Origin: a virus
Taxonomy: Duplodnaviria > Heunggongvirae > Uroviricota > Caudoviricetes
Direction: 5' to 3' (one strand)
Length of the DNA: 9,881 nucleotides
Virus record (IMG/VR): IMGVR_UViG_2675903425_000022
In this document: one piece after another, positions 7,477 to 9,881 of the stretch
Layout: the number at the start of each line of letters is the position of its first letter
Numbering within the stretch: the first letter of the stretch is position 1
Made by a program: the position numbers and the translations under genes
Notes under the pieces: model-generated
What the model was told of the DNA's origin: nothing
The model's input: only the letters and a program-made list of their open reading frames with translations
The model's database searches: none

Positions 7477-9881
7477 ATGAGTAAAATCTTTATTTGCGCT
7501 GCTATTCCTGACGAACAGGCCATAAAAGAAGATAGCGCTGTTGCGGTGGCCACTGCCATTGAAGCCGGTGATGAGCGTCGCGCACGCGCAAAATTTCACT
7601 GGCAATTTCTGGAGCAATTCCCGGCAGCTCAGGACTGCGCTTATAAATTTATTGTCTGCGAGGATAAACCCGGCATACCCCGCCCTGCCCTCGATTCCTG
7701 GGATACCGAATATATGCAGGAAAACCGCTGGGATGAGGAGTCAGCTTCCTTTGTACCGGTCGAACCAGAATCCGATCCGATGAACGTCAATTTTGACAAG
7801 CTGTCCCCTGAAGTACAGAACGCAGTCCTGGTTAAATTCGACACATGCGAAAACATCACCGTTGATATGGTGATTAGCGCACAGGAATTACTACAGGAAG
7901 ACATGGCAACATTCGGCGGACATATCGTTGAAGCGTTGATGAAAATGCCAGAAGTTAACGCCATGTATCCTGAACTTAAACTGCATGCCATCGGGTGGGT
8001 TAAGCATAAATGTGAGCCTGGCGCTAAATGGCCTGAAATTCAGGCAGAGATGCGCATCTGGAAAAAACGTCGCGAAGGTGAACGCAAGGAAACCGGAAAA
8101 TACACGTCTGTTGTTGATCTCACCCGCGCCAGAGTCAACCAACAGAACACTGAAAACGCTGCTGAAAAAACCGGGGCTGTCACTGTTGCCATTCGCCGCG
8201 AATACAAACAGACATGGAAAACACTCGACAATGAACTGGCCTGCGCCCTCTGGCCCGGTGATGTGGATGCAGGAAACATTGACGGTACCATCCATCGCTG
8301 GGCGACAAATGAGGTTATCGACAAGGATCGCGAAGACTGGAAGCGTATCTCAGCATCAATGCGCAAACAGCCCGAAGCACTTGGCTATGACCGTCAGACT
8401 ATTTTTGGCCTTGTTCGCGAACGTCCGATCGATATTCACAAAGATCCCGTTGCACTGAACAAATATATCAGTGAATACCTGACGACAAAGGGCGTGTTTG
8501 AACATGAAGAAACAGACCAGAGCTCTACTGATGCTCTCCAGCCGTCAGCAGCACAAACTGCTCCAGTGGAGACGGCAGAATCCGATACTCAAAAAAATGA
8601 AATCCTGGTGGAAGCTGAACCATCTGTAGAGCGTGAAGGACCATTTTATTTCGTCTTTACCGATAAGGGCGGGGAAAAATACGGCAGGGCAAACAAACTT
8701 TCTGGTCTGGACAAGGCGCTGGCTGCCGGCGGTACCGAAATCTCAAAAGAAGAATATTTTGCCCGAAAAAATGGCACATACACGGGCTTACCGCAAAATG
8801 TGGATACCGCTGAAGATTCCGAACAATCAGAGCCGGTAAAAGTTACCGCTGACGAAGTAAACAAAATTATGCAGGCAGCCAATATCAGCCAGCCTGACGC
8901 CGATAAATTGCTTGCTGCATCACGTGGTGAATTTGTTGAAGGGATTAGCGACCCGAATGATCCGAAATGGGTGAAAGGGATCCAGAGTCGCGACGCTGAG
9001 GACCAGAATCAGCCCAACGTGAAACAAAATGAGCCAGAAGCGGAACAAAACAGCCCGGATACGCAACAAAACGGGCCAGAAGAACAACAACCAGAACCAG
9101 CAGTGCAACAGGAACTGGAAAAAGTTTGCACCGCATGCGGTCAGACCGGTGGCGGCAACTGTCCTGACTGTGGTGCGGTGATGGGGAACGCAACCTACCT
9201 GGAAACATTCGATGAAGAGAATCAGGCTGAAGCTCAGAAAAATGATCCGGAGGAAATGGAAGGCACTGAACATCTGCACAAGGAGAACACTGGCAGCGAT
9301 CAGTATCACGCCAGCGATAATAAAACTGGCGAAACAGCAAATCCCTTAATTAAAGTGAACGGTCATCATGAAATCTCATCCACCAGCAGGTTGTGGCACC
9401 ATCTGATGATTGACCTTGAAACAATGGGAAAAAATCCTGATGCGCCAATAAACTCTATAGCCGGTAAGTTTTTTGATCCGGCAACCGGAGAGATGGGGCC
9501 AGAATTCAGCAAAACTATCGATCTGGAAACCGCAGGTGGGGTCATCGATCGGGACACCATTAAGTGGTGGCTGAAACAGTCACGCGAAGCACAATCCTCC
9601 ATTCTGACCGATGAAATCACGTTGGATGATGCACTGCTGCAATTCCGGGAATTTATCGACGAAAACTCCGGTGAATTTTTTGTTCAGGTCTGGGGTAACG
9701 GTGCAACTTTCGACAACGTGATTTTACGCCGTTCATATGAACGGCAGGGGATCCCCTGCCCGTGGCGTTACACCAATGATCGCGATGTAAGAACGATGGT
9801 TGCTCTGGGACTGGTGATGGATTTCGACGCAAGAACGACTATTCCATTCGAAGGTGAACGCCATAACGCCCTGCACGATGC
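7477..9881 (+). CDS. recE: RecE-like (exodeoxyribonuclease VIII-like) large multidomain protein, 5' part only; includes a Cys4 zinc ribbon and DEDDh 3'-5' exonuclease motifs; continues past window end
   Basis: Frame 1 is open from ATG 7477 (TGAGGT upstream) to the window end, 801 codons, verified row by row. It contains [27 protein letters not shown], which I recall from RecE; [15 protein letters not shown] (9127-9171); and DnaQ-like motifs DLET (9412-9423), GNGATFD (9694-9714) and HNALHD (9862-9879). The ORF track omits it because it has no stop within the window. Confidence 0.65.
   Translation, partial: [801 protein letters not shown]

Follow-up and report, generated by a model that had tools for sequence, protein, structure and literature searches.

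At the right-hand end of a 9,881-nucleotide stretch of viral DNA (Caudoviricetes; record IMGVR_UViG_2675903425_000022; the whole stretch is called the window here) a giant open reading frame combines a motif associated with RecE, a four-cysteine pattern and the motifs of a DEDDh exonuclease. This locus raises the question whether the gene codes for a RecE of dual polarity, as the original prediction had it, or for another kind of nuclease, and what such an enzyme would do for the prophage.

Identification of the complete gene

The open frame and the element preceding it are located as follows:

7463..7466, + strand: GAGG, a Shine-Dalgarno-like element 10 nt 5' of the ATG, read from the sequence
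7477..9881, + strand: exonuclease gene, codons 1-801 of 823, assigned by the open frame, the identity to O157:H7 and the match to phrog_2082

The stop-free translation from the ATG comprises 801 codons within the window. The gene was 100% identical to a gene of E. coli O157:H7 genomes, where the CDS has 2472 nt and codes for 823 amino acids, and the stop codon in these identical genomes lies 22 codons past the window. A single open frame of at least 801 codons leaving the window had been predicted, and this was confirmed. The RefSeq entry for the full protein is WP_000034474.1 ('exonuclease'), encoded in an E. coli O157:H7 prophage adjoining yccA, and phrog_2082 matched over 823 of 823 positions.

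K-12 YdfE and the window protein were 89% identical across aa 1-255. By homology, the ORF corresponds to ydfE (b1577) of the K-12 prophage Qin, a pseudogene truncated by IS2, and represents its intact form: the same gene in the same place after dicF-dicB-ydfD. An intact 823-aa allele was present at the Qin site beside rspB in strain VCSW8. Among complete E. coli genomes, about 75% carried the gene, with up to 7 copies per genome, and many alleles are labelled '3'-5' exoribonuclease domain-containing protein' by PGAP, the NCBI annotation pipeline. A literature search for functional studies of ydfE, or of Rv2179c in connection with prophages, found none. The gene is very common and ordinary; an annotation already exists, and its function is a predicted one.

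Position within the early-left operon

Neighbouring features are located as follows, dicB and the ydfD-like gene by conversion of the RefSeq coordinates at the identical locus (offset 1701):

6770..6821, + strand: DicF sRNA, upstream within this early-left operon (Rfam RF00039: 76.9 bits, gathering score 48)
7007..7383, + strand: dicB (7007-7195) and a ydfD-like DUF1482 gene (7192-7383), directly upstream of the exonuclease gene (RefSeq annotation, ORF list)

The window gene closes the early-left operon (ydfA-ydfB-...-dicF-dicB-ydfD) and lies immediately before xis and int. Downstream of it in O157:H7 come a DUF4224 excisionase-like gene, the integrase gene and then chromosomal yccA. The order dicB-ydfD-exo-xis-int was found at six loci, among them that of the isolated Escherichia phage Tritos, and at all six the excisionase-like gene and the integrase gene stood next to the exonuclease gene in place of recT. 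A single-strand annealing protein was not encoded near the gene, and the window contained no recognisable Rec module. The gene had been described as following dicB-ydfD, where recE sits in Rac. It does follow dicB-ydfD, but these two genes belong to prophage Qin and not to Rac, and the likeness to recE is one of analogy only: both positions are late in the early-left operon, close to xis and int, the window gene being the last one before them.

A scan for promoters and terminators around the gene yielded nothing that exceeded the shuffled expectation. The dicBF operon is repressed in lysogens, and in Northern blots of K-12 an operon transcript past ydfD was not detected (PMC10448788).

The C-terminal DEDDh exonuclease domain

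The exonuclease domain and its catalytic motifs lie at the very end of the window:

9397..9881, + strand: DEDDh 3'-5' exonuclease domain (Rv2179c-like/DexA family), of which the window covers aa 641-801 and which ends at aa 823 (Pfam PF16473; match to 8KEL)
9412..9420, + strand: Exo I, D646-L-E648 (DLET, aa 646-649), aligned with DexA D7 and E9
9712..9714, + strand: Exo II, D746 (GNGATFD, aa 740-746), aligned with DexA D119
9862..9879, + strand: Exo III, H796-x4-D801 (HNALHD, aa 796-801), aligned with DexA H186 and D191

Pfam PF16473 matched aa 641-801 over profile positions 1-165 of 177 with 186.3 bits (gathering cut-off 27; E=5.3e-55), the last 22 residues of the domain being removed from this scoring by the window. 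The predicted DEDDh domain is far beyond chance, with all five catalytic residues aligned, and the profile search thereby upheld the earlier reading of DLET, GNGATFD and HNALHD as DEDDh motifs.

About 193 of 197 relatives retained the D-x-E of Exo I, and the Exo III pattern was present as H-N-A-L-x-D in 186 of 190. As WGNGAxFD was one of the two regular expressions by which the 190 relatives were selected, its presence in them is no measure of conservation; the x position was N in 145, T in 44 and S in 1.

The best match by sequence to a solved structure was 8KEL, the T4 DexA (E=1e-6). Unlike DexA, Rv2179c was not matched in the PDB sequence search at E<0.01. Stand-alone domains of this kind are widespread among phages and prophages, with homologues in 779 phage records, T4-like dexA included; identity to DexA was only about 28%. 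In the full-length AF2 model, which was computed from a shallow alignment of close homologues, pLDDT was about 30 for aa 555-823, a level at which neither the predicted RNase H-like DnaQ fold nor the Cys4 ribbon is modelled with confidence.

The region shared with RecE

The 640 residues upstream of the exonuclease domain were divided as follows:

7477..8256, + strand: module A, aa 1-260, a YdfE-type N-terminal region without counterpart in K-12 RecE (predicted alpha/beta domain at aa 1-87 and helical domain at aa 101-202)
8257..8856, + strand: module B, aa 261-460, weakly shared with RecE (RecE alignment from aa 262, AF2 model, invariant columns in alignments A2-A4)
8905..8985, + strand: conserved 27-residue RecE-like motif, aa 477-503, with disordered flanks, common to RecE and distant relatives
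8983..9120, + strand: acidic Q/E/P/N-rich linker, aa 503-548 (composition; pLDDT <50)
9127..9171, + strand: Cys4 ribbon-like motif C551-x2-C554-x7-C562-x2-C565 (CxxC-x7-CxxC), aa 551-565, conserved in relatives
9199..9396, + strand: second acidic linker (Q/E/P/D-rich), aa 575-640, within which recE homology ends at both protein and DNA level (aa 624-625)

In the AF2 model, an acidic disordered linker in module B connects a helical domain (aa 244-341) with a small domain made of a beta-hairpin and a helix (aa 385-437; GPFYF...GRANK...EISKEEY). The linker at aa 503-548 contains 12 D+E, 22 Q+N+P and 2 K+R in 46 residues. The N-terminal 640 or so residues form small folded domains strung along acidic disordered linkers, and the N-terminal domains had no match among solved structures. 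The K-12 Qin copy differs from the window copy in that IS2 cuts it after about 255 codons, so that modules B and C and the exonuclease are lost.

BLASTP homology to K-12 RecE was confined to aa 262-625, which aligned with RecE 278-591. Within this region aa 465-625 and RecE 455-591 shared about 80% identity, and the motif as well as the four cysteines aligned, which bore out the association of the motif with RecE. At the DNA level, blastn homology to recE was limited to nt 1425-1874 of the gene (76%). The 27-residue motif was also found in the distant representatives P0143 and P0269.

The acidic Q/E/P-rich linker and the CxxC-x7-CxxC ribbon described from the sequence were both found, and the zinc-ribbon pattern of cysteines is present as a putative metal site. 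C551, C554, C562 and C565 were invariant in 123 of the 130 relatives bearing the DPKW motif, K-12 RecE included, and no Pfam zinc-ribbon family matched the protein. Neither the ribbon nor the motif is a novel addition to RecE, because K-12 RecE carries both: at the positions corresponding to aa 551-566 it has its own Cys4 ribbon, CNACGQTGGDNCPDCG, beside the same motif.

The homology stops where the crystallised nuclease domain of RecE starts (aa 605). In RecE this nuclease is PF12684 at aa 615-850, and structure 3H4R covers residues 605-866. PF12684 (PD-(D/E)xK nuclease) was not matched in the window protein, whose reading frame closes at aa 823, behind the DEDDh domain. The N-terminal family PF06630 (Exonuc_VIII) was not matched at E<=1, and it was matched by both K-12 RecE and the hybrid P0124. 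The NCBIfam RecE equivalog NF007259 gave 260 bits against a cut-off of 1269, and only aa 453-625 matched, at model positions 446-602 of 877.

By the NCBI equivalog model the protein is therefore not RecE; it is a mosaic relative with a single predicted nuclease domain. Residues 262-625 are homologous to the non-catalytic middle of RecE, with its motif, acidic linkers and Cys4 ribbon, and the PD-(D/E)xK 5'-3' nuclease of RecE is replaced by a DEDDh domain. RecE (exodeoxyribonuclease VIII of Rac in K-12) thus differs from the window protein in having PF06630 and PF12684/3H4R, in being followed by recT, and in its 5'-3' polarity, as against the 3'-5' polarity predicted here.

A mosaic family

The family was dissected using 35 long representatives from the 150 best matches of a search against proteins clustered at 50% identity. 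P0124 combined a RecE N-terminus with a DEDDh domain, while P0133 and P0151 had the YdfE-type N-terminus together with PD-(D/E)xK. A DEDDh and a PD-(D/E)xK domain in one protein were found in none of the 35. A third type of C-terminal domain was present in P0135 and six others. It scored 17.4 bits against Pfam Rad52_Rad22, below the cut-off of 20.3, and a PDB profile search with it was negative. The family is accordingly a mosaic in which the middle is shared, the N-terminus comes in two versions and the C-terminal effector is a DEDDh, a PD-(D/E)xK or possibly a Rad52-like domain.

A gene with the third domain in Pseudomonas phage phiC725A, annotated as 'putative DNA repair protein', lies upstream of genes for an epsilon-like exonuclease, SSB and RdgC, with one hypothetical gene between. 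This context is suggestive of the third domain being a Rad52-like annealing protein.

Predicted activity and role

The gene probably codes for an intact version of the YdfE-type 'exonuclease' found in Qin-like lambdoid prophages (dicB type), which is related to RecE as a mosaic and has a single nuclease domain. This judgement covers the whole explanation, including the activity and the role proposed below. The most likely activity would be that of a Mg2+-dependent 3'-5' exonuclease during prophage induction.

In the lysogen the gene would be silent under a DicA/CI-type repressor, and the protein would be made upon induction. By homology, the C-terminal domain would use two-metal catalysis to take nucleotides off 3' ends. 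DNA is the most probable substrate, since DexA, the characterised relative nearest in sequence, is a 3'-5' exodeoxyribonuclease (PMC12153337). The RecE-like N-terminal part may be non-catalytic and serve as a scaffold or a targeting module, in oligomerisation or in the binding of DNA or a partner; as the N-terminal domains match nothing solved, this role is a guess from the modularity. The role of the enzyme would most likely be DNA-end processing in phage replication, recombination or excision, and this is the weakest step of the proposal.

The stand-alone homologue gp34 of Salmonella phage epsilon34, a DnaQ-type nuclease 52% identical to the C-terminal domain, is likewise encoded in an early-left operon among recombination genes. 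The window gene is a fusion, whereas gp34 is a stand-alone protein of 182 aa, and its gene lies between those for SSB and Abc2 in the recombination module, which also includes a putative annealing protein flanking it. A survey reported nucleases of the DnaQ type in lambdoid 'Rec' (recombination) modules and also close to int; those near int and outside canonical Rec modules occupy the same position as the window gene (PMC12315714). DnaQ-like 3'-5' exonucleases usually inhibit homologous recombination and do not promote it (PMC12315714, citing Lovett 2011), which weakens a classical role as the partner of a recombinase. Further points against the main explanation are that the gene has no annealing protein encoded beside it and that the K-12 transcript was not detected past ydfD.

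It is also conceivable, although unlikely, that the gene is a prophage-borne defence gene for phage exclusion. The DEDDh domain would then selectively degrade incoming foreign DNA, for example that with the modified cytosines of T-even phages, an activity reported for EcD ('HREX'), a stand-alone protein of E. coli. T4 DexA (exonuclease A; 8KEL/8KEN) and EcD belong to the same DEDDh family as the window domain, the homology to DexA including the five aligned catalytic residues, and EcD, itself a DexA homologue, degrades 5hmC-containing T4 DNA and protects cells (PMC12153337). In E. coli the gene is highly abundant and present in multiple copies, and it shares its operon with DicB, which is reported to protect against some phages (PMC6832061). 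In addition, the residue aligned with DexA W152, which recognises 5hmC, is polymorphic in prophage alleles (T, Y, C, S, H), and this would fit a diversifying specificity.

However, the equivalent of W152 in the window protein is T766 and not W, and that of D169, a further DexA residue for 5hmC recognition, depends on the alignment, being D with HMMER and V with MAFFT. D718 is kept at the position of the DexA tetramerisation residue D90, where EcD has Ala (residue roles: PMC12153337). The window domain is also fused to a 640-residue RecE-like N-terminus that exclusion would leave unexplained. No model of the PADLOC anti-phage defence library matched, and the operon is repressed in lysogens (PMC10448788), while a defence gene is normally expressed.

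A broader proposal can be drawn from the mosaic family, and we hold it to be improbable. The RecE/YdfE N-terminal and central region would be a portable delivery module that brings interchangeable DNA-end enzymes (5'-3' PD-(D/E)xK, 3'-5' DEDDh and possibly Rad52-like annealing) to one common target or host partner. In proteins with the DEDDh domain, the polymorphic position of DexA W152 would tune which DNA ends, possibly modified ones, are attacked, and the gene, E. coli's most abundant prophage 'exonuclease', would be a specificity-diversifying nuclease against phages or plasmids and not a recombination enzyme.

An RNA substrate is conceivable because Rv2179c of M. tuberculosis, after which the Pfam family PF16473 is named, is a 3'-5' exoribonuclease, which the Pfam description gives as a stand-alone enzyme. 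In this case the protein would trim the 3' ends of RNA, such as host or phage transcripts or the dicBF sRNAs, or would degrade short oligonucleotide or cyclic-nucleotide signals in the manner of Rv2179c or a DEDDh enzyme of the Orn/Rexo2 type. The exoribonuclease-domain name given by PGAP to many alleles agrees with it. Such a function is nevertheless very doubtful, as DexA, the nearest relative in sequence that has been characterised, is a DNase, the domain substitutes for a DNA exonuclease on a RecE scaffold, stand-alone homologues are located in phage DNA-recombination modules, and no RNA-binding domain was detected in the protein.

The dual-polarity RecE of the original prediction, in which one polypeptide would carry a 3'-5' DEDDh domain and, downstream of it, a 5'-3' PD-(D/E)xK domain and would work with RecT, has hardly any probability left: nothing but the partial RecE homology at aa 262-625 speaks for it, and the downstream sequence, obtained from identical genomes and five other contexts, showed the ORF ending right after the DEDDh domain and xis and int in the place of recT, with neither PF12684 nor PF06630 in the protein and both nucleases together in 0 of the 35 dissected representatives. 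With one nuclease domain there is no dual polarity, and the dual-nuclease RecE was rejected.

Significance

The preferred explanation is that of an intact YdfE-type protein in which a putative DexA-like 3'-5' exonuclease is joined to the middle of RecE. At the level of annotation neither the RecE module nor the membership in the DexA family is new, and sequence analysis alone would leave the current understanding unchanged. The DexA family, to which the C-terminal domain belongs, includes a protein for which defence of E. coli against T4 was recently reported. The long non-catalytic part of RecE is an evolutionary module, recombined with different nucleases, and the family thus offers a natural experiment on the role of that part.

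Complete gene and its identity

An open frame of 801 codons began with ATG at position 7477 and ran on the + strand to the end of the window at 9881. All features listed in the original prediction (the large open frame, a RecE-like motif, an acidic linker, a putative Cys4 ribbon and the motifs DLET, GNGATFD and HNALHD) were found in this sequence.

Features of the exonuclease gene (aa, codons of the gene) and its upstream region
6770-6821, + strand: complete DicF sRNA upstream of dicB (Rfam RF00039, 76.9 bits)
10 nt upstream of the ATG, + strand: GAGG (sequence)
aa 1-87: alpha/beta domain (AF2 model)
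aa 101-202: helical domain (AF2 model)
aa 244-341: helical domain (AF2 model)
aa 385-437: beta-hairpin and helix (AF2 model)
aa 477-503: RecE-like motif of 27 residues
aa 503-548: acidic Q/E/P-rich linker (12 D+E and 22 Q+N+P in 46 residues)
aa 551-565: CxxC-x7-CxxC (Cys4)
aa 575-640: second acidic Q/E/P-rich linker
from aa 646: DLET
from aa 740: GNGATFD
from aa 796: HNALHD

The window as a whole was 99.9% identical to E. coli O157:H7 chromosomes, and the gene region was 100% identical to many of them. In the identical locus of the annotated genome NZ_AP018488.1 the CDS comprised 2472 nt, encoding 823 aa (WP_000034474.1, 'exonuclease'), and the stop codon lay 22 codons past the window end. Over its first 255 residues the protein shared 89% identity with ydfE, a pseudogene of K-12 prophage Qin that is placed after dicF-dicB-ydfD and is interrupted by IS2. 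Strain VCSW8 carried an intact 823-aa allele at the Qin site itself, adjoining rspB, and the gene is therefore the intact ydfE. AF2 modelling of aa 1-470 from an alignment (mean pLDDT 68) gave four confident small domains.

The protein matched phrog_2082 ('exonuclease', 823 positions) from end to end. Of 5426 complete E. coli genomes, 4049 contained exonuclease-domain DNA, at up to seven copies per genome, and 3964 contained DNA of the N-terminal module. The dicBF operon consists of ydfABC, dicF, dicB and ydfDE and is repressed by DicA, a CI-like protein; none of its products other than DicF, DicB and YdfD has been characterised (PMC10448788). No functional study of YdfE was found in the literature searched. 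The protein is already known from RefSeq annotation, a full-length PHROG, Pfam PF16473 and the newer PF27430 and PF27432, and its class, DnaQ-type nucleases of lambdoid early-left operons, has already been described.

DEDDh nuclease domain

Pfam PF16473 (Rv2179c-like 3'-5' exoribonuclease domain) scored 186 bits over aa 641-801 (cut-off 27; E=5e-55); the predicted DEDDh domain thus scored against an exonuclease profile, and a chance resemblance is ruled out. The best sequence match among solved structures was 8KEL/8KEN (E=1e-6), identified as T4 DexA and confirmed by tblastn matches to dexA of T4-like phages and by PMC12153337. In a MAFFT alignment with RB32 DexA, epsilon34 gp34 and PhiR40_1, residues D646, E648, D746, H796 and D801 fell on the catalytic residues D7, E9, D119, H186 and D191 of DexA. 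In nearly all of about 190 relatives the residues of Exo I and Exo III were conserved, evidence that the enzyme is active and under selection.

W152 of DexA is reported to be needed for recognition of 5hmC-DNA (PMC12153337). Its position is occupied here by T766 (codon 766, window 9772-9774, PWRYTNDRD), and E. coli prophage alleles differ from one another at this site. Among the 190 relatives, picked with a pattern that included the flanking PW..NDRD motif, the residue was Y in 79, T in 56, S in 21, C in 18 and H in 14 (eight commonest variants). Stand-alone DEDDh homologues retained W. The codon-766 site may be specificity-determining.

Relation to RecE

BLASTP against K-12 RecE gave a single significant segment, aa 262-625 (RecE 278-591), with 38% identity overall and about 80% over aa 465-625. 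Alignment with recE at the DNA level was restricted to nt 1425-1874 (aa 475-624; 76%). The segment held the 27-residue motif and the ribbon, and the homology ended about 15 residues short of the crystallised RecE nuclease domain (RecE 605-866 in 3H4R; 615-850 in PF12684). Pfam searches of the protein matched neither PF06630 (RecE N-terminus) nor PF12684, and the NCBI RecE equivalog model scored 260 bits against 1269 required. Of the predicted RecE-like character, the partial homology to the middle of RecE was upheld. Judged by its sequence, the exonuclease is a mosaic relative of RecE and not a RecE. The ribbon was invariant in its four Cys in 123 of the 130 relatives with the adjoining DPKW motif. 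K-12 RecE also carries it (CNACGQTGGDNCPDCG), so it belongs to the ordinary features of RecE and is no new fusion partner.

A representative search against proteins clustered at 50% identity gave 9720 matches at E<=1e-3. From the best 150 of these, 35 long representatives were split locally by modules A (aa 1-260), B (aa 261-460), C (aa 461-640) and DEDDh; some were checked with Pfam.

Architectures in the family
YdfE-type N-terminus, B, C, DEDDh: gene under study
RecE N-terminus (99% identical to K-12), C, DEDDh: P0124
YdfE-type N-terminus, PD-(D/E)xK: P0133, P0151
YdfE-type N-terminus, B, a third, roughly 250-aa domain: P0135, P0141, P0142, P0164, P0179, P0239, P0269

P0124 (805 aa) was a natural hybrid of the K-12 RecE N-terminal domain (PF06630), the shared centre and the DEDDh domain (PF16473), so exchange of the nuclease head has taken place on either type of N-terminus. 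DEDDh and PD-(D/E)xK occurred together in none of the 35 long representatives dissected from the best 150 matches.

The third domain, noted also at loci L009:2983-3738 and L010:1696-3828, was conserved (motif KKSLTDAxKKALSxLGFSADVxLGLYD) and in the fusion proteins stood in place of a nuclease. Pfam Rad52_Rad22 scored 17.4 bits on it, below the threshold of 20.3, and a PDB profile search gave no match. Stand-alone copies, annotated 'putative DNA repair protein', occurred in Pseudomonas and Vibrio phages; the copy of Pseudomonas phage phiC725A lay upstream of the genes for an epsilon-like exonuclease, SSB and RdgC, a single hypothetical gene intervening. The domain may plausibly be a previously unrecognised Rad52-like annealing domain, and its carriers are perhaps the 'RecE-2' proteins reported without a nuclease domain (PMC12315714).

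Gene neighbourhood

A dual-polarity RecE, with the 3'-5' DEDDh domain and a downstream 5'-3' PD-(D/E)xK domain in one polypeptide, had been proposed. In NZ_AP018488.1 the stop codon was followed by a DUF4224 excisionase-like gene, a tyrosine integrase gene and chromosomal yccA. Neither a second nuclease domain nor recT was found 3' of the gene in this annotated locus, an outcome named in advance as refuting, and the idea is therefore refuted.

The complete DicF sRNA 5' of dicB confirmed the region as a Qin-type dicBF operon. The order dicF-dicB-ydfD-exonuclease-xis-int was found again at five other places:
isolated phage Tritos (85% identical)
phage vB_EcoM-606R7 (gene in two ORFs)
three more E. 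coli lineages (differing integration sites)

In vB_EcoM-606R7 (L008:4081-6524) the homologue was annotated as two adjoining 'exodeoxyribonuclease VIII' ORFs (4081-5001 and 5157-6524); either the gene is broken there or the sequence contains an error.

A relB/relE-type toxin-antitoxin pair (63 and 95 aa; window 4619-5097, + strand; annotation of the identical locus) was flanked by a CI-like repressor gene (4190-4591) and a ydfA-like gene, and so lay within the prophage early-left region. Between the ydfC-like gene and DicF, a small ORF (6248-6505, - strand) encoded a PCPACN...CPEH Cys/His pattern; an ORF in comparison locus L011, corresponding by position alone, was annotated 'ECs_2282 family putative zinc-binding protein'. 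A run of 50 N at 3673-3722, from masking or an assembly gap, was bordered on both sides by the same 15-mer (gctcgaaatacgctt); ORFs reported across it contain X runs and are uninterpretable. The minus strand of the window had two Chi octamers (GCTGGTGG), at 3493 and 9380, the latter within the exonuclease gene; the plus strand had none. Two are too few for interpretation. Chi abundance has been linked to lambdoid phages without Rec modules (PMC12315714).

Proposed role

The product of this gene, the last of the early-left operon, combines one DEDDh catalytic domain with a modular, RecE-like scaffold, and the neighbourhood contains no gene for an annealing partner. Stand-alone DEDDh homologue epsilon34 gp34 lay between SSB and Abc2, 3' of a putative recombination protein. 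Lambdoid Rec modules contain four nuclease types, DnaQ-like 3'-5' nucleases among them, and DnaQ-type genes occur sporadically near int (PMC12315714). DNA-end processing during phage replication, recombination or excision is the favoured role, because the scaffold is elsewhere fused to recombination enzymes and stand-alone homologues occur in Rec modules. The enzyme would be expressed upon derepression or induction and would use two-metal catalysis to degrade 3' ends, probably those of DNA. Targeting or assembly would fall to the N-terminal region, which holds the conserved motif and the ribbon.

The main rival, an EcD/HREX-like exclusion nuclease, would suit the relationship to DexA and the polymorphic W152-equivalent site, but the operon is repressed in the lysogen, the EcD-specific residue pattern is absent and PADLOC gave no match. 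RNA or an oligonucleotide is a possible substrate; DNA appears more likely because DexA is a 3'-5' exodeoxyribonuclease, although the name-giver of PF16473 is an exoribonuclease. The RecE domain swap and the DexA/HREX link are sensible grounds for experiments rather than surprises.
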